A DNA stretch of 64,000 nt from an uncultured beta proteobacterium (GTDB lineage: Bacteria; Pseudomonadota; Gammaproteobacteria; Burkholderiales; Thiobacillaceae). The notes beneath the pieces were generated by a model. The model had not been told where the DNA came from. It did not search any database and saw nothing but the letters and a program-made list of their open reading frames with translations. Numbering within the stretch: position 1 is the first letter of the stretch; the number at the start of each line of letters is the position of its first letter. Positions 4,940 to 42,810 of the stretch are shown here, one piece after another. The position numbers and the translations under genes were made by a program. The DNA is taken from the NCBI GenBank assembly GCA_963782495.1, contig CAWAJU010000005.1, positions 204,260-268,259 on the forward strand. Direction: 5' to 3'.

Positions 4940-5003
4940 GCGCAACTTCACAAACTCGACCGCCTTCCTCGCCCAACTTTCATTCCTATTGTCGGACCTG
5001 CCA
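4940..5003 (-). repeat. Decayed copy of the thiC 3'-end segment (copy C)
   Basis: CTTCACAAACTCGACCGCCTTCCTC (4946-4970) matches thiC 7426-7452 (CTTCACAAACTCGACCGACTTCACTTCC). GTCGGACCTGCC matches ATCGGACAGGCC further along. It shares the CTTCCTC 2-nt-shorter variant with copy A. Confidence 0.5.
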
Positions 5004-5535: not shown

Positions 5536-5580
5536 CTTGCATCTGCTGACCGAATATTTGAGCTTTCTCAAACCTTCCGA

Positions 5581-5695
5581 TACACCTCGGCCCCCTGCTT
5601 CACAAACTCCACCGACTTCCTCCATGCCTTTCTGCAGCGCCTCTTCATCAGACAGGCCTTACTGGTCAGCGTAGTCGCGCACGTCCTGGGTAATA
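5581..5695 (-). pseudogene. thiC 3'-end remnant (copy A)
   Basis: About 85% identical by eye over about 115 nt to thiC 7408-7522. Translated in the thiC frame it gives [24 protein letters not shown], followed by a 2-nt deletion. It therefore carries both an in-frame stop and a frameshift. Confidence 0.75.
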
Positions 5696-5815
5696 TTTCA
5701 AACAACTCGAGCCCAGCTCCTTGAATTGTCAGGGCATGTCCCTATTGCGGATCGACAACCTGGTCATCCGGGATAATCTATCGGCTGATACCGCATGCTT
5801 GCCTGTGCATGGAGT

Positions 5816-7117: not shown

Positions 7118-7394
7118 GTCGTCCTCCATTTGTAAGTTGAGTCCAAGTGAACGGAATCTGCCAGGCGCCGCAGCTCGTTTTGCGCATGAATCGATATTCG
7201 GCAAATATCGACAATAATCCGTATAGCACGCGCTATTTTCCGGCCTCGCAGTGCGACTTCACCGTCTGGCTCGCCATCCCCCTCTACAGGTCCCACTTTC
7301 GCTGATGTCCTGCTTGGCAGCGAGGTCTCGCACTCCCCGGGCAGGCCCAATTTTACTTGGCGGCAACTGTGCCTCGATTGTTGTCGTGGGTACC

Positions 7395-9452
<2,058 letters not shown>

Positions 9453-9537
9453 GAAAGTAGCGGAAATATGGAATAATTGCAAGATAAGACCCTACTTAAC
9501 TGATTGAATTTTCGAAATTTAAGCGGAGCTGGAACTG

Positions 9538-10191
9538 ATGGATATTGAGCAGGTGCGCTACAAGATGGTCGAACAGCAAATCCGTCCCTGGGAGGTATTG
9601 GATCCGGATGTGCTGGAACTTCTCATCAAGATCAAACGGGAAGAATTCGTCCCCGGACCCTACCGCTCCCTGGCCTTCGTGGATATGGAAATCCCGCTTG
9701 GCCACGGTGAACAGATGTGGTCACCCAAGCTCGAAGCCCGCGCCCTGCAGGAGTTGCAACTGAAAAAACCCGACAAGGTGCTGGAAGTAGGCACTGGCAG
9801 TGGCTATCTCACCGCCTTGCTCGCCTCGCTCGCGGCCCATGTGCGCTCGGTGGATTGCATCGGCGAATTCGTCGCCGATGCAAGCAAAAAACTCGCGGCC
9901 CATGGCTTTGGGAATGTCACTCTTGAAACGGGCGACGGCGCCAGCGGCTGGCCTGCACATGGCCCTTATGACGCCATCGTCATGACTGGTTCGTTGCCCT
10001 TGCTGCCGGACGCACTGCCCAAGCAACTGGCCCCGGGCGGACGGCTGTTCGTGATCCTGGGCGAAGGGCCGATCATGCAGGCTACCCTGTTCACTTGCGT
10101 TGCGCCGGGTTCCTACCGCCGTACGGTGCTGTTCGAAACCCTGGTCAAGTCACTGGCACATGCGGCCCAACCGGAACGTTTCGTCTTCTAG
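9538..10191 (+). CDS. Protein-L-isoaspartate O-methyltransferase family protein
   Basis: 217 aa. SAM-binding motif VLEVGTGSGYLTALLA and overall COG2518-like sequence. Confidence 0.8.
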   Translation: MDIEQVRYKMVEQQIRPWEVLDPDVLELLIKIKREEFVPGPYRSLAFVDMEIPLGHGEQMWSPKLEARALQELQLKKPDKVLEVGTGSGYLTALLASLAAHVRSVDCIGEFVADASKKLAAHGFGNVTLETGDGASGWPAHGPYDAIVMTGSLPLLPDALPKQLAPGGRLFVILGEGPIMQATLFTCVAPGSYRRTVLFETLVKSLAHAAQPERFVF

Positions 10192-10222
10192 GCAAAACGT
10201 GGCGAGAGAAGGATAGCGTCCA

Positions 10223-10540
10223 GTGCGCAACATCAGCGTTGCCGAGCTTGAGACCATGTTGAAAGAGGGGAAGGCGCCTGCGGTGCTGGATGTTCGGGAA
10301 GAATGGGAAACGCGGCTGGCGCCCTTTGCCGGGGCGACCTGGATACCCATGGGCCAGATTCCGGCGCGTCTGCAGGAATTAAATAAGACCCGGGAAACTG
10401 TCGTTATCTGTCACCATGGCATCCGCTCCTGGCGGGTCGCCAAGTTTCTGGAGAGCGAGGGGTTCGAAAATGTCATCAACCTGGCCGGCGGAATCGATGC
10501 CTGGTCCAAGGAGATCGACTCTTCCATCCCCCTCTATTGA
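10223..10540 (+). CDS. Rhodanese-like domain protein
   Basis: 105 aa with a GTG start. Active-site loop CHHGIRS is typical of single-domain sulfurtransferases. Confidence 0.85.
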   Translation: MRNISVAELETMLKEGKAPAVLDVREEWETRLAPFAGATWIPMGQIPARLQELNKTRETVVICHHGIRSWRVAKFLESEGFENVINLAGGIDAWSKEIDSSIPLY

Positions 10541-14383: not shown

Positions 14384-15124
14384 CTAGAGTCTCGCACTCC
14401 TCCCCCCATCCACCGCAATCACCTGCCCCGTCACATAGGGCGCATCGCACACCAGGAAGCGTACGGCGCGGGCGATATCGCTCGGCTCGCCAGCGGACTT
14501 GAGGATGGTGTTGGAAATGATGCGCTGGCGCGAAAGCTCGTCGAAATTGGGATCGTCCTCGGGCCACACGATAGGGCCGGGCGCCACCGCATTCACCCGC
14601 ACTTCAGGCCCCAACTCACGTGCCAGCGATTTCGTCAGCCCCACCAGTCCGGCTTTCGCGACGGAATACACAACATAGTTTTCCATCGGCCTGTCGGCGT
14701 GAATGTCGGTGATGTTGACGATGCAACCGCGGTGCTTGCGCAGTTCCGGCGCCGCCGCCTGGGAAAGAAACATCGGCGCTTTCAGGTTGGTGCCCATCAG
14801 GTCAACCCAGTCACGCTCGCTGATGCTTCCCACCAGGGTCGGATAAAAGCTGGACGCATTGTTCACCAGCACATCGAGGCGGCCGAAGCTGGCGACCGTC
14901 TGGTTGACCAGACTGGTCAATAACCCAGTGTCGAGCAAGTCCGCCTGGATCAGGGAAACCGAATCGGGCCGCAGGTCATTGAGTTCGTCCTGCAGTGCGC
15001 GCGCAGCCTCGGCGGAGTTGCGGTAATGAATCATCAGGTTCATGCCCTCGCCGTGCAGGGCGCGGGCGATCTGCGCCCCAACCCTCCGGGACGCCCCTGT
15101 AATCAGCGCAACTTTGCCTTGCAT
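14384..15124 (-). CDS. Short-chain dehydrogenase, pteridine reductase-like
   Basis: Start at MQGKVALITGASRRVGAQIA. SDR fold motifs including YSVAK. Resembles FolM/PTR1-type reductases. Confidence 0.8.
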   Translation of the reverse strand: MQGKVALITGASRRVGAQIARALHGEGMNLMIHYRNSAEAARALQDELNDLRPDSVSLIQADLLDTGLLTSLVNQTVASFGRLDVLVNNASSFYPTLVGSISERDWVDLMGTNLKAPMFLSQAAAPELRKHRGCIVNITDIHADRPMENYVVYSVAKAGLVGLTKSLARELGPEVRVNAVAPGPIVWPEDDPNFDELSRQRIISNTILKSAGEPSDIARAVRFLVCDAPYVTGQVIAVDGGRSARL

Positions 15125-27489: not shown

Positions 27490-28414
27490 TCAGGGTCTGC
27501 TCCAGGATCTTCACGCACAGATCTGCAAATGAAATGCCGGCCGCCCGGGCTGACATCGGCACCAGGCTATGGCTGGTCATGCCGGGCACGGTATTCACTT
27601 CCAGAAAATAGGGTTTGCCACTGCGGTCCAGCATCAAGTCAAGCCTCGCCCAACCCTTGCACCCCAGGACTCTGAACGCGCGCTGAACCAGGGGGTGCAG
27701 TTGTAGTTCGGCGTCCGGCGCCAATCCGGGGCAGTGATAACGCGTGTCATCGCGGAAATACTTGGCTTGGTAGTCGTAGAATTCCGTTGCAGGTTCGATG
27801 CGTATGGATGGCAAGACCTGGTCTCCCAATACCGGAAACTGCACCTCCATTCCGTCGATGAAACATTCGGCCAGCACGATCGGGTCGTATTTCACCGCCT
27901 CGGCGTAGGCAGCTGGCAGTTCCTCAACCCGTTTCACCTTGCTGATCCCGATGCTCGAACCCTCGTTCGCGGGTTTCACGAACAGTGGCAGGCCAAGATC
28001 GGCTGCGATCGCCGCGAGGTCGCTGCGCTCGTCGAGCAGCACGTGGCGCGCAACAGGAATACCCACTGCCTCCCATAGCAGCTTGGTGCGCCATTTGTCC
28101 ATGCCGACCGCCGACGCCATCACACCACTGCCGGTGTAGGGAATGCCCATCATCTCAAGCGCGCCCTGGATGCTCCCATCCTCTCCATGGCGCCCGTGCA
28201 GTGCGATGAACACGCGTTCGAAATTCTCAGCTTCCAAAGCGTGCAGACTGCGTTCACCCGTGTCGAACGCGTACGCATCGACCCCTGCTTCACGCAGCGC
28301 CTGCAACACAGCGTTGCCGCTCATCAGCGAGACTTCCCGCTCGGCGGATGTGCCACCCAGGAGGACGCCGACCTTGCCGAACTGTTTCACCCCGCACCCC
28401 TCACTTTCGTTCAC
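27479..28414 (-). CDS. ddl: D-alanine--D-alanine ligase
   Basis: [23 protein letters not shown]-terminus and ATP-grasp motifs. The exact start is uncertain: ATG 28414 or a few codons downstream. Confidence 0.92.
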
Positions 28415-29381
28415 CTATAATCCGAACTTCGCGGATCAGGCGTACGTTGGTCATCTCTTCCACTTTCTCTTCCACGCGCTCAATCAAGCCCTCGATGTCC
28501 GCCGCGGTCGCGCCACCCAGATTCACGATGAAGTTGGCGTGGGTTTCCGAGACCTGGGCCTGCCTCACGCGCATGCCCTTGAGACCGCAGGCCTGAATCA
28601 GCCTTGCCGCGTAGTCCCCAGGCGGATTGCGAAATACGGAACCGGCATTCGGCAGTTGCAGCGGCTGGGTAGCGATGCGCTGGGTGAGCAGCGCCTTGAT
28701 CTTCTCCCGCGACGCGGCTCCGTCCCCCTTGGGAAAGCGGAACCAGCCGCCGATGAACCATTCTTCTGCCGGCTCTTTCAGCGCGGCATGGCGATATCCC
28801 AGCATGTACTCGTCGGGCCGGCGTTCGTTCAGATGTCCCCGGCGATTCAGGGTCAGCGCCTGAATGACGTGGTTCCAGGTTTCCGAACCGTAGCAGCCGG
28901 CATTCATGGCCAGCGCGCCGCCCACGGTGCCGGGAATGCCGGCGAGAAACTCTGCTCCGGTCAGATTGTGATTGGCGGCAAAGCGGGCCAGCTTGGGCGA
29001 AGCCACGCCCGCCTCCGCATAAATCACGGCGGAGTTCTCCATTCCCGGCGCAGGTGGCGGCAAGCCTGTGCTGCGGGCTTCCATGGCGATGTGATTGAGC
29101 ACCCCGTGAAGCAGGATGACCACGCCCTTGAGCCCGCCGTCCCGTACCAGCAGATTGCTGCCCAGACCCACCACGTGGACCGCCTCGCTTGTGTCGAGCC
29201 CCTGCAGCAGCAGGCACAAATCGTCCAGGTCGGCCGGCACGTAAACCCGTTGCACCCGGCCGCCCGCGCGCCACGACACGTGTTGCGCCATCGATTCGTT
29301 ATGCAGGAAGCGGCCGCGCAGTACCTTGCCCGCGCCACCCCTGCCCGGGTCCTCGGGAAAGCGGAAGCGCGCCAGGGTCAT
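28401..29381 (-). CDS. murB: UDP-N-acetylenolpyruvoylglucosamine reductase
   Basis: 326 aa with FAD-binding and MurB C-terminal domain-like sequence. Its ATG overlaps the TGA of the upstream mini-cistron (ATGA). Confidence 0.93.
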
Positions 29382-29491
29382 CTCGTCGCCTCCGCATTTT
29401 CTGTCGTCAATTGAAGCCCCATCGTGTCGGCTGCAGGCGCCATTCGCGGGCGTGCGGATCCCCGCATGCGGGGCCCCTCCTTACTGCTCAT
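29378..29491 (-). CDS. 37-codon mini-cistron, unit B ([37 protein letters not shown])
   Basis: Its ATG overlaps the stop of unit A (ATGA) and its TGA overlaps the murB ATG (ATGA). GGAGG lies 7 nt before the murB ATG. Translation is inferred from geometry only. Confidence 0.4.
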   Translation of the reverse strand: MSSKEGPRMRGSARPRMAPAADTMGLQLTTENAEATR

Positions 29492-29496
29492 GTCGC
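29426..29496 (-). repeat. Conserved 71-nt repeat core (copy 1, murC-murB junction)
   Basis: gtcggctgcaggcgccattcgcgggcgtgcggatccccgcatgcggggcccctccttactgctcatgtcgc. Contains the palindrome CCCCGCATGCGGGG. Confidence 0.9.
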
Positions 29497-29601
29497 ACCC
29501 TCCCCAAGAGAAGTGGGCAACTCAGTCAGCCTCGCGTCGGCTGCAGGCGCCATTCGCGGCCGTGCGGATCCCCGCATGCGGGGCCCCTCCTTACTGCTCA
29601 T
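29488..29601 (-). CDS. 37-codon mini-cistron, unit A ([37 protein letters not shown])
   Basis: Its ATG overlaps the murC TGA (ATGA) and its TGA overlaps the ATG of unit B. It is the tail of track ORF 29488..29868. Confidence 0.4.
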
Positions 29602-29606
29602 GTCGC
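29536..29606 (-). repeat. Conserved 71-nt repeat core (copy 2, murC-murB junction)
   Basis: 70/71 identical to copy 1, 110 nt away. Its end contains the murC stop codon. Confidence 0.9.
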
Positions 29607-30986
29607 CGCCACCTTTGGCGCAACCTGGCCGATGGAACCCGCGCCCATCACCAGGACCACGTCGCGATCGCGCGCCTGTTCCCTGATGAGCTGGGGCAGG
29701 TCGGCCACGTTCTCCGCAAAAACAGGCTCGACCTTGCCTGCCACTCGAAGCGCACGCGCCAGGGCCCGCCCATCGGCTGCCACAATGGGCGCCTCGCCGG
29801 CGGCGTAGACCTCCGTCATCATCACGGCATCGGCCTCCGACAGCACTTTGACGAAATCCTCGAAACAATCCCGGGTGCGGGTATATCGATGCGGTTGAAA
29901 CACCAGGACCAGGCGCCGACCGGGAAACGCGCCACGCGCTGCGGCAAGGGTGGCGGCCATTTCCACGGGATGGTGGCCATAATCGTCCACCAATGTGAAA
30001 CTGCCGCCGTCCTTTGCGGTGATCTCTCCGTAACGCTGGAAGCGCCGACCGACGCCGGTGAACTCGCTCAGCGCCTTGAGGATTGCGGCGTCATCGGCGC
30101 CGGTCTCGTTGGCCACGGCTATGGCCGCCAGCGCATTCAGCACGTTGTGGCGGCCGGGAAGATTCAATACGACAGGCAGACGTGTTTCGCTGCCATTGCG
30201 GCGTATTGCGGTGAAGTGCATCTGGCCGTCAACCGCCCGCACATCGATTGCCTGCAGGTCGGTGTCCGCGGCAAAGCCATAGCTGGTGACGGGTTTGGAA
30301 ATCTGCGGCAGGATTTCGCGTACGTGCGGATCATCAATGCACAGAACGGCACGGCCATAGAAAGGCAAGCGCTGGAGAAAATCGACAAACGCCTGTTTGA
30401 GCCGGTTGAAGTCATGACCATAGGTTTCCATGTGGTCGGCATCGATGTTGGTGACCACGGACATCACCGGCGATAGCAGCAAGAAAGAGGCATCGGATTC
30501 GTCAGCCTCCACCACAATAAAGTCGCCCTTTCCCAAGCGCGCATTGGCGCCGGCCGCGTTGAGCCGGCCGCCGATAACGAAGGTGGGATCCATGCCGGCT
30601 TCGGACAGGCAGGACGCCACCAGGCTGGTGGTAGTCGTCTTGCCGTGGGTGCCGGCGATGGCGATGCCTTGGCGCAGGCGCATCAATTCGGCCAGCATCA
30701 TGGCACGCGGCACCACCGGAATATGGCGGTCGCGCGCGGCCAGCACTTCGGGGTTGTCCTGTGTCACTGCGGTTGAAGTCACCACCGCATCCGCCATGCC
30801 TATATTGTCGGCGGCATGGCCGGTCACCATCCTGGCGCCCATCGCACTCAGCCGCCGGGTTGCGGCATTTTCGGCCAGGTCGGAACCGGAAACCGTGTAG
30901 CCCAGATTCACCAGCACCTCGGCGATGCCGCTCATGCCGGCACCACCGGCGCCGACGAAATGGATGTGTCGGACTGCGTGCTTCAT
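29598..30986 (-). CDS. murC: UDP-N-acetylmuramate--L-alanine ligase
   Basis: Start at [25 protein letters not shown]. Mur ligase motifs. Confidence 0.95.
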
Positions 30987-34643: not shown

Positions 34644-35725
34644 CTCAGCTTCAACGTCGACAACCCAATCAGCACCAGCATCATGGAAATGATCCAAAAC
34701 CTGACCACGACCTGCGTCTCCTTCCAGCCCTTGAGCTCGTAGTGGTGATGTATGGGTGCCATGCGGAAGATGCGCTTGCCGGTCAGCTTGAAGCTGGCGA
34801 CCTGGATCATCACCGAGAGGGTTTCCATGACGAACACGCCGCCCATGATGAACAGCACGATCTCCTGCCGGACAATGACCGCAACCACGCCGAGTGCAGC
34901 ACCCAGCGCCAGGGCACCCACATCGCCCATGAACACCTCGGCCGGATACGCGTTGAACCAAAGGAAAGCCAGGCCGGCGCCGGCAATGGCGGCGCAGAAC
35001 ACGATCAGTTCGCCGGCCCCCGGAATGTGTGGGAGCCCAAGATATCTGGAGAACACCGCGTTGCCTGCAACGTAGGCGAAGATCCCCAAGGCCGATGCCA
35101 CCATGACCGTGGGAAGGATGGCGAGCCCGTCGAGGCCGTCGGTCAGGTTGACCGCATTGGATGAGCCGACGATGACGAAATAGGTCAGCACCAAAAAGCC
35201 CAGGGCGCCGAGCGGAATCGCCACGTGTTTGAAGAAGGGCACGATCAGCTCTGTCTGCGCCGGCAGATCGGTGGTGTACACAATCGCGAGCGCGGCGCCA
35301 ATGCCGAACACGGACTGCCACAGGTACTTCCAGCGTGCGATGAGTCCCTTGGGATTCTTGTGCACGATCTTCCTGAAATCGTCCACCCAGCCGATCGCAC
35401 CAAAGCCCAGGGTCGTCAGCAGCGCGATCCAGACATAGCGGCTGTGGAGATCCATCCAGAGCAGGGTGGCAATCGCCACCGAAACCAGGATCAGCGCACC
35501 GCCCATGGTCGGCGTGCCGGCCTTCACCAGATGGGTTTGCGGACCGTCATCGCGCACCGACTGGCCGAACTTCATGATCTTGAGCCGGTTGATCATCCAC
35601 GGACCGACCACAAAGGAAATGCTCATGGAGGTCAGCACTGCCAGCACCGCGCGCAGGGTCAGGTAATTGAAGACGTTGAATGCCCTGATGTTCTGACCGA
35701 CGGTTTGGAACAGCCATAGCAGCAT
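34640..35725 (-). CDS. mraY: Phospho-N-acetylmuramoyl-pentapeptide transferase
   Basis: 361 aa with a strong MraY match ([18 protein letters not shown]). Confidence 0.96.
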
Positions 35726-37089
35726 CAGAGAGCCCCTTGACCGACGAAACTGTCCACCACGCGCTCCATCTTCATGGCCCGGGACCCCTTCACCAGCACT
35801 GTCACGTCCGGCGCGAGTTCGTTTTCCAGATCCGCCAGCAACTCCTCGATGCGTTCGTAATGCAGCGCGCCGGCACCGAACGCCTGTACGCTCGACTTGG
35901 ACCAGTCGCCCAAAGCCAGCAGGCGATCCACTCCGGCCTGACGTGCCGCCAGGCCTACCTGGGCATGGAGCGCGGCGGATTCGTCGCCCAGTTCGCGCAT
36001 GTCGCCCAGTACCAGGATTTTTTTCCCAGGCCGCTGGGTCAGCACGGCGATTGCGGCTCTTACCGAATCGGGGTTGGCGTTGTAGGTGTCGTCGATAAAC
36101 AGCGCGCCATTATGACCAGCCTTGTTTTCGAGCCGCCCCTTGACGCCGGTAAAGCCGGCAAGGCCTTGTTCTATCGCGTGCAGACTCGCCCCCATGGCCA
36201 ACGCGCAGGCCGCCGCCGCCAGGGCATTGCGGGCGTTGTGCTCCCCGGCAAGCTGCAGACGAACCGACACTTCACCCTTGGGTGTATGGATGCTGAGCAT
36301 CTGGCCGCTTTGCTCGCCCGCGCTTTGCCCACGTACCTCGGCGCTGGCAGCGAAACCAAAGTCGACGACACGGCACGCTGTATTCATGCTGCGCCACTGG
36401 CCTGCATAAGGGTCATCGGCATTGATCACCGCCACGCCGTCTGACCGCAAACCCTGGTAGATCTCACCCTTGGCTTTTGCAATCGCATCGAGCGAGCCGA
36501 GCAAGCCCACATGCGCCGACTGGGCATTGTTAACCAGAGCGACGGTGGGCCGGGCAAGATGGGTCAGATAGGTCAGCTCGCCAAAATGGTTCATGCCCAT
36601 TTCCAGCACCGCGAACCGATGGCCGGATCGCAGGCGAAGCAGCGTCAGGGGGCAGCCGATGTCGTTGTTCAGATTGCCCTCGGTGGCGAGCACGCAGTTG
36701 GCGTCACCCGCTTCGGTCCGCAGTATGGCTGCAAGCATTTCCTTGACCGTTGTCTTGCCATTGCTGCCGGTGATGGCCGCCAGCGGAATTGAAAATTTCT
36801 GCCGCCAGTGGGCCGCCAACTTGCCCAAGGCGATACGGGTGTCTTCCACCACGATGGAGGGCTTGAGTTCGGGTGCGCCATAATGATTAAGTACCACCCC
36901 GGCCGCGCCCTTTGCCAGGGTGTCCGCGGCAAAGCGCGCGGCGTCGTAGGTCTCGCCCCGCAATGCAATGAATAGCTGCCCGCTGGCGATGGAACGGCTG
37001 TCGGTGGAAACCGAATCAAACTCCCCGTCCTCCCCGACCAAGTGGCTCCCCATGGCCTGAGCCGCTTCGGACAGACTCATCATGCTCAT
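35725..37089 (-). CDS. murF: UDP-N-acetylmuramoyl-tripeptide--D-alanyl-D-alanine ligase
   Basis: Start taken at ATG 37089 ([11 protein letters not shown]), with GGAGG 7 nt upstream. This ATG overlaps the TGA of the 74-codon mini-cistron. Mur ligase motif ITGSNGKTT. Confidence 0.92.
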
Positions 37090-37310
37090 GACCACACCTC
37101 CGACGGCGCACTCACGGTCTCTTGCCCCTCATGTGGCTGGAGGTGTTCATTCGCGGACGTGCGGATCCCCGCTGCGCGGGGCCCCTCCTTACTGCTCATG
37201 ACCACACCTCTGCCAGCGCCGCTCCCGGTGCAGAATCTCCATGTCGGTGTGCGGTGCTCATTCGCGGACGTGCGGATCCCCGCTGCGCGGGGCCCCTCCT
37301 TACTGCTCAT
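37086..37310 (-). CDS. 74-codon mini-cistron made of two 37-codon repeat units ([19 protein letters not shown]... twice)
   Basis: Its ATG 37310 overlaps the murE TGA (ATGA) and its TGA 37088-37086 overlaps the murF ATG (ATGA). It is the tail of track ORF 37086..37913. Confidence 0.4.
   Translation of the reverse strand: MSSKEGPRAAGIRTSANEHRTPTWRFCTGSGAGRGVVMSSKEGPRAAGIRTSANEHLQPHEGQETVSAPSEVWS
37147..37205 (-). repeat. Conserved repeat core (copy 3, murE-murF junction)
   Basis: tcattcgcggacgtgcggatccccgctgcgcggggcccctccttactgctcatgaccac. Same family as copies 1 and 2, with a different hairpin loop (CCCCGC-TGC-GCGGGG). Confidence 0.9.
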
Positions 37311-37316
37311 GACCAC
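37258..37316 (-). repeat. Conserved repeat core (copy 4, murE-murF junction)
   Basis: 59/59 identical to copy 3, 111 nt away. Contains the murE stop codon. Confidence 0.9.
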
Positions 37317-38746
37317 GCCCCCAGTGCCCGCATGGCGGCGTCCACATCGGAAAACGGGTGCCTTTCGCCGGCAACTTCCTGGTAATCCTCGTGACCCTTG
37401 CCGGCGATCAACACCACGTCCGCCGCGCGGGCCATACCCACCGCTTCGAAGATGGCGCGGGCCCGGTCGGGCTCGACCTTGTAGCCTGCCTTCATGCCTG
37501 GAGTGATGTCGTCGATGATGGCCAGCGGATCTTCGTGGCGCGGATTGTCGCTGGTCACGATTACGCTGTCTGCGCCTTCGCTGGCCGCCCGTCCCATGAG
37601 CGGCCGTTTGCCGCTGTCGCGGTTGCCGCCGCAGCCAAACACGCAGATCAACCGGCCCTGGGCGGAAGTCTTCCTTAAACTGGCCAGGACTTTTTCCAGC
37701 GCGTCGGGCGTATGCGCATAGTCCACCACGACCAGGGGTTGTGCTCCGCCCCCCAAAGTCTGCATACGGCCCGGCGGCGGAACAATTAGGGACAGAAGCT
37801 CGCAAGCCCGGGTCAGCGGCACCTCCGAGACCAGCAGTGTGGTCAGAACTGCAAGCACATTGCTGGCATTGAAGCGGCCCACCACCGGCGCCCGCAATTC
37901 TGTCTGCCCCCAATCCGAACGAATCCCGATGCGCAGGCCCAAGCGGTCGGCCTGGAGTATTTCGCCGATTACGGCGCCGCGTTCAAAGCCATAACCCGCG
38001 ATGTGCAGGCCCTTGATCTCGCGCTCAAGTTGACGGCCGAACTCGTCATCCAGATTGAGTACGGCATTGTTCAGGCCGGGCCAGTTGAACAGCCGGGCTT
38101 TGGCTGCCGCATAGGCATCCATGTTGCCGTGGTAATCAAGATGATCGCGCGACAGGTTGGTCAGGACGCCCACATTGAACTGGCAACCGACGGCGCGGCC
38201 CTGATCCAGACCGTGGGAAGAAACTTCCATGGCGCAGGCCCGCGCGCCGTCCTGGAGATAGCGCGCCAGGGCTTGTTGGAGTTCGATGGCATCCGGCGTG
38301 GTGTTGGCGCTGGGGCTCAAGCTGCCGGGGAAGCCGTTGCCCAATGTGCCCAGCAGGGCAGTCTTGCGTCCCTCGCGAGCAAGACATTGGGCAATCCAGT
38401 GGGCAACCGAGGTCTTTCCGTTGGTGCCCGTCACGCCGATCATGTGCAGGTGCTCGGAAGGCCGGCCGTAGACCTGACTGGCAATTTCGCCCACCCGGTT
38501 CCTCAAGTCCTCCACTCCGGCATTCGGCACAGACCACGCCGGGTCCCAGACATAGCCCTTCCTTTCCCACAATATTCCATCGGCACGGTTGGCAATCGCC
38601 TGGGAAATAAAATCCCGACCATCCAGACGAGTGCCGGGATAGGCAGCGAACACCAGACCCGGGCCCGCCTTGCGACTGTCCGCACTCAGCGCTCTGACGG
38701 AAGTGCCCAAACGATGCAGGATGTGTTCAGCCGATTCCATGCTCAT
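37307..38746 (-). CDS. murE: UDP-N-acetylmuramoyl-L-alanyl-D-glutamate--2,6-diaminopimelate ligase
   Basis: 479 aa. VTGTNGKTS motif and the DNPR motif (SDNPRHEDP). Confidence 0.95.
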   Translation of the reverse strand: MSMESAEHILHRLGTSVRALSADSRKAGPGLVFAAYPGTRLDGRDFISQAIANRADGILWERKGYVWDPAWSVPNAGVEDLRNRVGEIASQVYGRPSEHLHMIGVTGTNGKTSVAHWIAQCLAREGRKTALLGTLGNGFPGSLSPSANTTPDAIELQQALARYLQDGARACAMEVSSHGLDQGRAVGCQFNVGVLTNLSRDHLDYHGNMDAYAAAKARLFNWPGLNNAVLNLDDEFGRQLEREIKGLHIAGYGFERGAVIGEILQADRLGLRIGIRSDWGQTELRAPVVGRFNASNVLAVLTTLLVSEVPLTRACELLSLIVPPPGRMQTLGGGAQPLVVVDYAHTPDALEKVLASLRKTSAQGRLICVFGCGGNRDSGKRPLMGRAASEGADSVIVTSDNPRHEDPLAIIDDITPGMKAGYKVEPDRARAIFEAVGMARAADVVLIAGKGHEDYQEVAGERHPFSDVDAAMRALGAWS

Positions 38747-42328: not shown

Positions 42329-42376
42329 AATCCGAACATCAAATTATATCTACAACATATTGAATTTATGTGAATT

Positions 42377-42694
42377 GGATGAGTCAACCTGTAAGCCGGG
42401 TTCTGTCATGGACAGTCATTCCTCTAGACCTGCCATCGCTGGCGGGTTCAAGCCACCTACCCGCAGACTCAGCGAGCCGCTTCGTCGCCTGCCTATTTGG
42501 TGTTGCTCCGGATGGAGGTTGCCGCGTTTCACCCTTTGTAATAGTGCCGCGATAAACTGCGGTAATCGCAAAGACTCGTCTCTGTGGCCCTGTTCCTCGC
42601 CTCGCGGCGTACGGCCGTTAGCCGTCATCCTGCTCTGCGGAGCCCGGACTTTCCTCTGCCGGCGTATCGTCGGCAGCGACTGTCCAGTCAACTC
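42377..42694 (-). ncRNA. rnpB: RNase P RNA (bacterial type A)
   Basis: Minus strand reads GAGTTGACTGGACAGTCGCTGCCG...GAGGAAAGTCCGGGCTCC...GGGTGAAA...ACAGAACCCGGCTTACAGGTTGACTC. This matches the universally conserved RNase P blocks and P1 pairing. The two ORFs called here are artefacts. Confidence 0.85.
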
Positions 42695-42810
42695 ACCCAC
42701 ATTTATTATAGGGTTGATTAATGGAATGCGATTAGCTAATGATAAGTATGGGGCCGATGCGATGACTCCTAGTTGACTTTCTCGGACACACAAAAATAGG
42801 AGAATTCAAA

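Follow-up and report, generated by a model that had tools for sequence, protein, structure and literature searches.

The closest described counterparts of the sequences considered here are the interspersed repetitive units of mycobacteria (MIRUs; Supply et al. 1997), whose properties we take from two reviews. MIRUs insert at start codons, with the MIRU open reading frame (ORF) coupled to the gene at a -4 spacing (PMC12548453, section 11), and they are located in operons, are transcribed polycistronically, have both filled and empty sites, marked by tetranucleotide direct repeats, and carry ORFs that overlap the adjacent genes (PMC3184786). Here we analyze a 64,000-nucleotide stretch (the window) of contig CAWAJU010000005.1 from an uncultured member of the Thiobacillaceae, in which tandem units of 110 or 111 nt separate murC from murB and murE from murF. 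The units belong to a family that has not been described before, a MIRU-like repeat of Thiobacillaceae inside the essential dcw cell-wall/division operon. We assign a probability of about 0.7 to the reading that they form a small, non-protein-coding interspersed repeat family that is specific to Thiobacillaceae and behaves like MIRUs. To our knowledge, no repeats other than MIRUs have been described that enter operon junctions and are kept harmless through coupled translation of a mini-ORF; a second family with this geometry, in another phylum and in the dcw operon, suggests a convergent solution.

The resemblance extends to several features. In both cases, short head-to-tail units sit at intercistronic operon junctions, co-oriented with the genes; the ORF begins on the upstream stop and ends on the downstream start (-4, ATGA); sites occur both filled and empty, with short direct repeats; and copy number varies between relatives, with the peptides presumed to be irrelevant. 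The differences are that the host belongs to the Thiobacillaceae (Betaproteobacteria) and thus to a different phylum, that the unit measures 110/111 nt as against about 40-100 for MIRUs, that it carries a covarying 5' hairpin domain of ~51 nt with a perfect UAAGGAGG, and that there exist a start-less sister subfamily at gene 3' ends and one copy in frame within a coding sequence (CDS). Because host, length and 5' domain differ, and because the comparison is one of descriptions and not of sequences, we file the family as MIRU-like and not as MIRU. It is apparently independent of MIRUs and probably unrelated to them. An earlier note on this DNA made no mention of this precedent.

That note had described a chain, or relay, in which the murC TGA overlaps the ATG of unit A, the TGA of unit A overlaps the ATG of unit B, and the TGA of unit B overlaps the murB ATG, and our coordinates for the three starts (29601, 29491 and 29381) agree with it. 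Re-reading the sequence also returned the tandem period of 110 nt and the two open frames of 37 codons, the 71-nt core (GCGAC plus 66 nt) that is identical at 70 of 71 positions between units A and B, the palindrome inside this core in both units (CCCCGCATGCGGGG, at 29570-29583 and 29460-29473), and the GGAGG-N7-ATGA ending of each. On the minus strand, the 3' end of murC reads ...GCGACATGA. Two parts of the description needed revision. The ~39-nt parts were said to differ completely, which is overstated, since identity over the 3' 58 nt, in which the core's final 14 nt are included, is 64%; and the two units reported were an incomplete count, two further copies at 37090-37310, between murE and murF, having been missed. 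The window contains four matches to the 24-mer ATGAGCAGTAAGGAGGGGCCCCGC, as against none in 100 shuffles, and a nucleotide hidden Markov model (HMM) finds four family units in the whole window and none further. Because the unit spacing at murE-murF is 111 and then 110 nt, that array forms a single 74-codon ORF. Gene identities come from Pfam matches on called genes of the same contig (ENA ERZ25039539 contig_2925, a 309-kb metagenome contig); all coordinates are collected in Table 1. Position 29525, in the variable part of unit A, is C on the minus strand of the window and T in L001, a locus found by exact MurB match that bears the same contig name as the window; this one-base difference is a polymorphism or an assembly-version difference.

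Relatives show the same junctions with and without the element. A MurB homologue search gave four relatives with MurB 75-88% identical to that of the window, and the comparison with empty sites that the earlier note had proposed could be made: murC and murB overlap directly through ATGA, without insert, in L028, L029 and L031 (e.g. aaaggtggccggctcATGAcactcgcg), the site reading ...ATGAC..., and in L033 the two genes are separated by a 2-nt gap (TGA-TC-GTG), with the insert absent. The 220-nt insert of the window is bounded exactly by ...GGCGGCGACATGA and CCCTGGCG, between ATGA and the second codon of murB. At murE-murF, the genes overlap directly (0 units) in L028, L031 and L033; one diverged 110-nt unit is present in L029/L030, called in L030 as a 37-aa ORF with a 4-nt overlap with both neighbors; and two units of 111+110 nt are present in L037 (metagenome-assembled genome (MAG) GCA_936415045.1), as in the window. 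In its 5' part the single L029 unit corresponds to unit 1 of the two-unit arrays and in its 3' part to unit 2, and it looks like a u1/u2 recombinant, as contraction by inter-unit recombination would give. Direct repeats of 4-13 nt including ATGA mark the boundaries, running from ATGA up to GTGGTCATGAGCA or GGCCGCATGA, and their length, on which target-site duplications of miniature inverted-repeat transposable elements (MITEs) are judged, differs from site to site. Because the arrays are absent at the same junctions of close relatives, they are dispensable, and a selfish or neutral element is therefore favored over a regulatory device.

Some details of these sites are recorded separately. The 'empty' murE-murF site of L028 (about 2150-2190) is GGTCATGAGCATGATGA, the naive L031 site is GGTCATGATGA, and the murF start of the window also reads ATGAGCATGATGAGT. 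The extra ATGAGCA in the L028 site equals the first 7 nt of the element and may be an excision footprint. Both murE (731-2171) and murC (8615-10004) of L028 are called as two overlapping pieces, probably owing to assembly frameshift errors.

Further members were sought in 185,579 species-representative genomes with an exact pattern, in JGI metagenomes with a degenerate hairpin pattern and among proteins with a peptide profile, and the hits of all three were merged with a nucleotide HMM (nhmmer); 12 of the 19 loci from the metagenome pattern scan were chance hairpin matches and not family members. The resulting family comprises 34 units at about 16 sites. Matches from the genome scan are Thiobacillaceae MAGs throughout, and the window's MurB, too, has its closest named relative in the Thiobacillaceae; the other units come from metagenome contigs that carry no label. 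All 34 units have the same orientation as the upstream gene, and the arrays run head to tail with 1-3 tandem units, a number that varies among relatives. The consensus unit reads N-N-GAGCAGTAAGGAGGGGCCCC(G/A)C, a loop of 2-3 nt, G(C/T)GGGGATCCGCACGNCCGCGA(GC/AT)..., ~45 variable nt and a GGAGG-like box, with a canonical period of 111 nt, or 37 codons. One subfamily, 'ATGA/GAAT', includes the window, L029, L035, L037 and L038, with a GTGA variant in L003/L008; the other, 'GCGA/GAGC', is without the start codon (L004-L007, L011-L026 and L036).

The sites at operon junctions are murC-murB, murE-murF, rnfB-rnfC, the junction downstream of rnfE at the end of the rnf operon, nrdR-ribD, one between an ABC transporter gene and a GNAT-like gene, X-pyrF, and, in L038, one that precedes a Fer4/CCG protein. 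L035, a 520-kb contig (ERZ25039539 contig_7213) that shares its sample with the window, carries arrays at 10043-10374 and 14401-14619, with three units between rnfB and rnfC and two after the last rnf gene. Units also lie at the 3' ends of convergent genes in L015 and L023, and probably in L017 and L036, and the L006/L014 unit lies in the 5' region beside a divergent mutM. Because the start-less GCG subfamily lies at convergent 3' ends or in a 5' region, the relay is not intrinsic to every copy. Coding sequences can be entered as well. In L005 (649-755, minus strand of the locus), a 111-nt, 37-codon unit sits in frame inside an alpha-2-macroglobulin-like CDS, where the 37-38 inserted residues (ASSKEGPR...LSEGA) are absent from five aligned homologues and the unit is flanked by a CGGAGGG.GCG direct repeat. 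In protein P0126, encoded on a 1000-nt JGI contig, the C-terminal end of RsfS (ribosome silencing factor) runs stop-free into a family unit, within which the contig ends, making the unit a 3' extension of the RsfS gene.

The relay was assessed in ten arrays that are flanked by co-directional genes and visible at both ends. We called it strict when the start lies across the previous stop and the final stop lies across the downstream start. It is strict in eight of the ten and holds at least loosely in all ten: ATGA or GTGA stands at both ends in the eight, and the other two close within 12 nt. The start-to-start length in strict arrays is 3n+2, or 110+110 as two ORFs, and without exception the last unit, or else the total, has a 3n+2 length (110, 110, 110, 110, 113 and a total of 109+103). 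Five of the six internal units measure 111 nt and keep the frame, the exception being unit A of murC-murB, which at 110 nt has its own ORF. Every array that has an NTG on the upstream stop and is readable through to the downstream gene (both window arrays, L029, L037, L035 rnfB-rnfC, L038, L008 and L007) is 3n+2 in total with an open frame and therefore closes on the downstream start. In the array after rnfE of L035, a unit with an internal stop is bridged by two ATGA restarts. The earlier proposal of an insert compatible with an unbroken coupling chain is thus upheld by the empty sites and the 3n+2 closure, but it does not extend to every copy, since GCG-type copies lie at convergent 3' ends or in a 5' region; among the 34 units found, every copy is in sense orientation, and the ten junction arrays close strictly or loosely.

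The same geometry recurs in sequences that do not belong to the family. At further dcw junctions (ftsW-murG, murG-murC, murF-mraY, murB-ddl and ftsQ-ftsA; start codons were corrected in the murB-ddl region of L028 and L031) the relatives carry unrelated inserts, which form a strict relay in 8 of 10 cases. Because inserts with no relation to the family form relays in the same operon, the relay constraint comes from the operon context. To judge from sequence, the relay is best seen as a residue of selection in a tightly coupled operon, and intercistronic inserts in the dcw operon would tend, across relatives, to be bridged by relay ORFs. Three traits ease the relay for the family: the 37-codon length, two open frames and the 3' GGAGG box. 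The unrelated inserts are 80-260 nt long, some contain REP-like CGCAGAGACGCAGAG palindromes, and none (0) matched the family HMM; an 88-codon relay ORF across a murF-mraY insert has a shuffle rate of 0.012.

A potential explanation of these arrays is coincidence, in which an ordinary REP-like selfish repeat has ATGA ends that are merely the duplicated target, frames that are open through T-poor, GC-rich composition, and downstream genes that start independently from GGAGG. Dinucleotide shuffles of the inserts with the flanks kept do give a strict relay at a rate of 0.06-0.35 per junction (0.09-0.23 with random length trimming), every unit has its own GGAGG-N7 before the next start, and start-less GCG-type copies occur at convergent 3' ends. 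Frame 1 is open in 20 of 21 units; since ~80% of the units' reverse-strand frames are open too, we set ORF openness aside as weak evidence. What makes coincidence unlikely is the combination of cases: the eight strict family arrays and the eight strict unrelated inserts, each from a set of ten, lie jointly far above a null of about 0.17, and for about eight independent sites, six of them strict, the joint probability calculated from the shuffle rates is about 5e-4. The constant 3n+2 of the last unit, the 111 nt of nearly all internal units and the compensating ATGA restarts of the prematurely stopped unit point the same way.

Termination-reinitiation at overlapping stop and start codons is an established mechanism (reviewed in PMC12548453), and it provides the basis for the model that we favor, that of a MIRU-like element tolerated at coupled junctions. 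Comparison of the sites indicates that the element lands in, or is copied into, the ATGA overlap of two co-transcribed genes, with the junction repeated on both sides, and that arrays then grow and shrink by recombination between units; the spread itself may proceed by some form of transposition or recombination. Because promoter-like and terminator-like sites are absent from the units, the insert is expected to be co-transcribed with the operon. A ribosome ending at the murC UGA would re-initiate at the overlapping AUG, read 37 codons through the hairpins, and stop at the UGA that overlaps the next AUG behind GGAGG-N7, and so onward to murB, melting the hairpins and the stem that occludes the Shine-Dalgarno (SD) sequence as it translates. 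The tight coupling of the original junction would thereby be preserved, and the comparative pattern suggests that selection in coupled operons purges copies whose length or frame breaks the chain. As in termination-reinitiation coupling with short 'delivery' ORFs and in bicistronic designs, the codons overlap as AUGA and the only role of a short ORF would be to bring ribosomes to the next start and open up structure there; here, in contrast, a repeated and apparently mobile sequence holds the short ORF, in chains of two to three.

The relay ORFs have an ATG start, an open 37-codon frame and an upstream SD sequence, and gene callers sometimes call them (37 aa in L030; P0121-P0124), all of which would be expected if the mini-cistrons were true small-protein genes encoding a family of 37-aa peptides. 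This is nonetheless highly improbable. The hairpin loop is 2 nt or 3 nt depending on the copy in the family alignment, and for this reason the peptide frame differs after the eighth residue, beyond MSSKEGPR (MRGSARPRM... vs AAGIRTSANEH...). Differences between orthologous or sister units fall evenly on the three codon positions (for example 3/5/6 and 7/11/10). The mini-ORFs have a flat GC1/GC2/GC3 of 0.63/0.59/0.72 (0.67/0.57/0.64 in the 3' half), as against about 0.67/0.46/0.75 in the flanking mur genes. Many family members lack the start codon, and a protein search with two-unit concatenations matched only 8 database proteins, of which 0 had a Pfam domain belonging to the unit itself. On the frame switch, the even substitutions and the lack of coding GC periodicity we rejected a small-protein gene; the predicted mini-ORF peptides are by-products and are not conserved.

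Conservation is concentrated in the 5' domain of ~51 nt. In an alignment of 28 units (A4), 98% of its cells are paired, compared to 35-53% when the 3' partners are slid by 1-3 columns. Pairs 1-51, 2-50 and 23-29 covary; the last, in the apical stem, is GC in 18 units, AU in 7 and GU in 3. The closing pairs 1-51/2-50 switch jointly from G-C/C-G (GCGAGC...GCGAGC) to A-U/U-A (AUGAGC...GCGAAU), with GU intermediates in L008 and L026. As a consequence, the start codon in the window's subfamily has its first two bases paired with AU in GAAUG. The domain also has invariant loop nucleotides, and its hairpin is preceded by GUAAGGAGGGG and followed by AUCCGCACG. Of six pairs of units compared within arrays, five show 96-100% identity over the first 52 nt and 56-78% over the remainder, the exception being the recently duplicated L011 pair (90% and 98%); between orthologues, too, the 5' domain is more conserved than the 3' half. 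This hairpin domain is most likely a module for the propagation or recognition of the element. The L011 tandem units (958-1179) are identical over ~100 nt except for five clustered changes at the hairpin tip (CCCCAC-GCA-GTGGGG vs CCCCGC-TT-GCGGGG), which look like gene conversion or template switching and not like point mutation, and this clustering calls for caution in reading stem covariation as selection.

The 3' half also has a structural feature. The GGAGG box has a predicted pairing of 0.70 compared to 0.56 in shuffles (0.72-0.98 for the four window units), and a self-versus-cross duplex test of the 3' SD stem gives p=0.007 overall, significant only across subfamilies; predicted SD sequestration by this stem is thus modestly supported. 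Two decayed units, L029_u1 and L037_u2 (AAGCAGG), keep an intact relay.

We considered two functional readings of the 5' domain. In one, the element is a host-beneficial cis-regulatory RNA whose 5' domain, with the SD-like UAAGGAGG, acts as a processing or stabilizing site or tunes the expression ratio of the flanking genes. The covarying pairs, the invariant loop nucleotides, the better preservation of the 5' domain and the strictly sense orientation are what such a device would show. Yet close relatives (MurB 80-88% identical) do without arrays at the same junctions, copy number ranges from 0 to 3, the element recurs in unrelated contexts that include the interior of a CDS, the decayed units persist with the relay intact, and the units give neither an Rfam match nor a thermodynamic signal, which leaves this reading quite unlikely. 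In the other, the element is an active, portable 'translational coupler' that holds the terminating ribosome and resets any frame to AUG. The sequence UAAGGAGG...(hairpin)...GAUCC, which stands at 29586-29593 and 29565-29569 in unit A and correspondingly in every unit, agrees with the complement of the 16S rRNA 3' tail at 13 of 14 positions, taking the 16S rRNA 3' end to be UAAGGAGGUGAUCC, and AUG, UGA and UAA occur in three different frames within the first 11 nt of the unit. A coupler of this kind would make the element a bacterial counterpart, on a mobile repeat, of the calicivirus termination upstream ribosome-binding site (TURBS) reinitiation motif. We count against it that the SD-broken L029_u1 and L037_u2 keep the relay and that the GCG type has the same domain without a start codon, and we consider it very doubtful.

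Several observations weigh against the MIRU-like reading itself. A single relay is not improbable, given a shuffle null of up to 0.35, and orthologous sites cut the independent cases to about 8. The L004 and L035 rnfE arrays close only loosely, the GCG-type subfamily is without a start codon, and open frames are common at this composition, with ~0.48 expected for 36 codons and the reverse-strand frames open as often as noted above. Translation of the mini-ORFs is something we infer from the sequence. The four window units fold no more stably than dinucleotide shuffles (z from -0.2 to +0.9, both strands ~0), and because these z-scores are about 0 the structural claims rest on covariation only, which in the 5' domain may go back to just a few events in evolution. 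The position of the SD-sequestering stem is not conserved, and the self-versus-cross test is not significant within ATGA-type units. There are no terminal inverted repeats, only self-palindromic TCATGA junctions, and no transposase or mobilizing function was identified in the carrier-genome fragments at hand, where alone it was looked for. For these two reasons, the word 'mobile' here follows from presence/absence and multiple sites alone.

Other described elements fit less well than MIRUs. Rickettsia palindromic elements (RPEs; Ogata et al. 2000, cited in PMC3184786), whose units measure about 105-146 nt, are able to lie in frame in a CDS and add a peptide, as the L005 copy does, but they are found mainly inside ORFs and are palindromic over their full length, and stop/start relay arrays are not known for them, whereas most copies here are intercistronic. 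Repetitive extragenic palindromic (REP) sequences are 20-40 nt long and headed by GTAG or CGTC, are found in both orientations or in inverted pairs, and are mobilized by REP-associated tyrosine transposases (RAYTs) (PMC3733652). Together with bacterial interspersed mosaic elements (BIMEs) and REP doublets (REPINs), they share with our units a GC-rich hairpin repeat in transcribed intergenic DNA, often right after stop codons. They differ in that the unit here is a 110-nt composite, strictly head-to-tail and sense and without a GTAG/CGTC head, and in that REPs have no ORF logic; REP/REPIN was rejected on size, head motif (the hairpin being preceded by the sequence given above) and single orientation. 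A MITE was rejected for lack of terminal inverted repeats. An intrinsic terminator was rejected because there is no U-tract after the hairpin and no terminator-like site inside the units, and no promoter was found in them. A CRISPR-like 'repeat plus spacer' arrangement does not fit repeats of 50-70 nt in intra-operon, sense-translated arrays of at most 3 units. The Rfam gathering scan of the window returned only RNase P and thiamine pyrophosphate (TPP) matches, both elsewhere, with no family on the units, and an Rfam scan of four carrier loci at E<=10 returned nothing on the units. The earlier view that this is no plain REP or terminator element therefore stands, on the missing U-tract, promoter match and Rfam family and on the sense orientation of all copies.

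The relay pattern suggests real selection for translational continuity across dcw junctions, and junctions with 0, 1, 2 and 3 units provide a natural series for the dependence of downstream genes on termination-reinitiation. The conserved, structured 5' domain offers a handle for finding what copies the elements. For annotation, gene callers mostly skip the mini-ORFs, or call them as hypothetical proteins or gene extensions.

Table 1. Coordinates and layout of the repeat arrays, their flanking genes and the unrelated dcw inserts; positions are those of the window unless a locus is named.
Feature	Position	Strand	Remarks
Unit A	29492-29601	-	110 nt; nhmmer E about 4e-20
Unit A mini-ORF	29601-29488	-	37 codons; ATG overlaps murC TGA, TGA overlaps unit B ATG 29491
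Unit B	29382-29491	-	110 nt; nhmmer
Unit B mini-ORF	29491-29378	-	37 codons; TGA overlaps murB ATG at 29381
5' hairpin domain, unit A	29552-29601	-	Closing helix AUGAGC/GCGAAU; internal loops with UAAGGAGG; apical stem CCCCGC-AU-GCGGGG 29570-29583
5' hairpin domain, unit B	29442-29491	-	Apical stem 29460-29473
GGAGG before unit B	29499-29503	-	7 nt upstream of unit B ATG; predicted paired, 12-bp stem GUUGCCCACUUCU/GGGAGGGUGCGAC
GGAGG before murB	29389-29393	-	7 nt upstream of murB ATG
murC	29598-30986	-	Stop TGA 29600-29598 overlaps first mini-ORF ATG 29601-29599; Pfam
murB	28401-29381	-	N-terminus MTLARFRF, as in empty-site relatives; Pfam
Second array, unit 1	37200-37310	-	111 nt; ATG 37310 overlaps murE TGA 37309-37307; in frame with unit 2
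Second array, unit 2	37090-37199	-	110 nt; ACACCUCC/GGAGGUGU form 8-bp stem over 3' SD box
Second array, combined ORF	37310-37086	-	74 codons; ATGA at both ends; TGA overlaps murF ATG 37089
murE	37307-38746	-	Pfam
murF	35725-37089	-	Start ATG 37089 as gene caller has in L001; Pfam
Strict relay, window murC-murB			110 and 110, two ORFs
Strict relay, window and L037 murE-murF			111+110
Strict relay, L029 murE-murF			110
Strict relay, L035 rnfB-rnfC			111+111+110
Strict relay, L038			111+113
Strict relay, L008			109+103, GTGA
Strict relay, L007			299 nt, GTGA
Loose relay, L004			Stop 8 nt past pyrF GTG
Loose relay, L035 after rnfE			28+9+32 codons, ATGA restarts; last stop 12 nt before ATG
Unrelated dcw inserts, L028	7322-7511, 10982-11061		
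Unrelated dcw inserts, L029	7401-7512, 10982-11166		
Unrelated dcw inserts, L031	3292-3554, 7195-7297, 8402-8603, 10982-11097, 12843-13032		
Unrelated dcw insert, L033	8505-8603		

Three other features of the window are unrelated to the repeats or lie apart from them. The Rfam matches are a bacterial RNase P class A RNA at 42376-42695 on the minus strand (243.9 bits) and a TPP riboswitch at 9354-9451, also on the minus strand (65.4 bits), neither connected with the units. Between 4946 and 7526, direct repeats of 25-77 nt with 82-92% identity lie ~1827 nt apart (5567-5697 vs 7394-7526, plus 4946-4970) and probably mark tandem paralogous genes.

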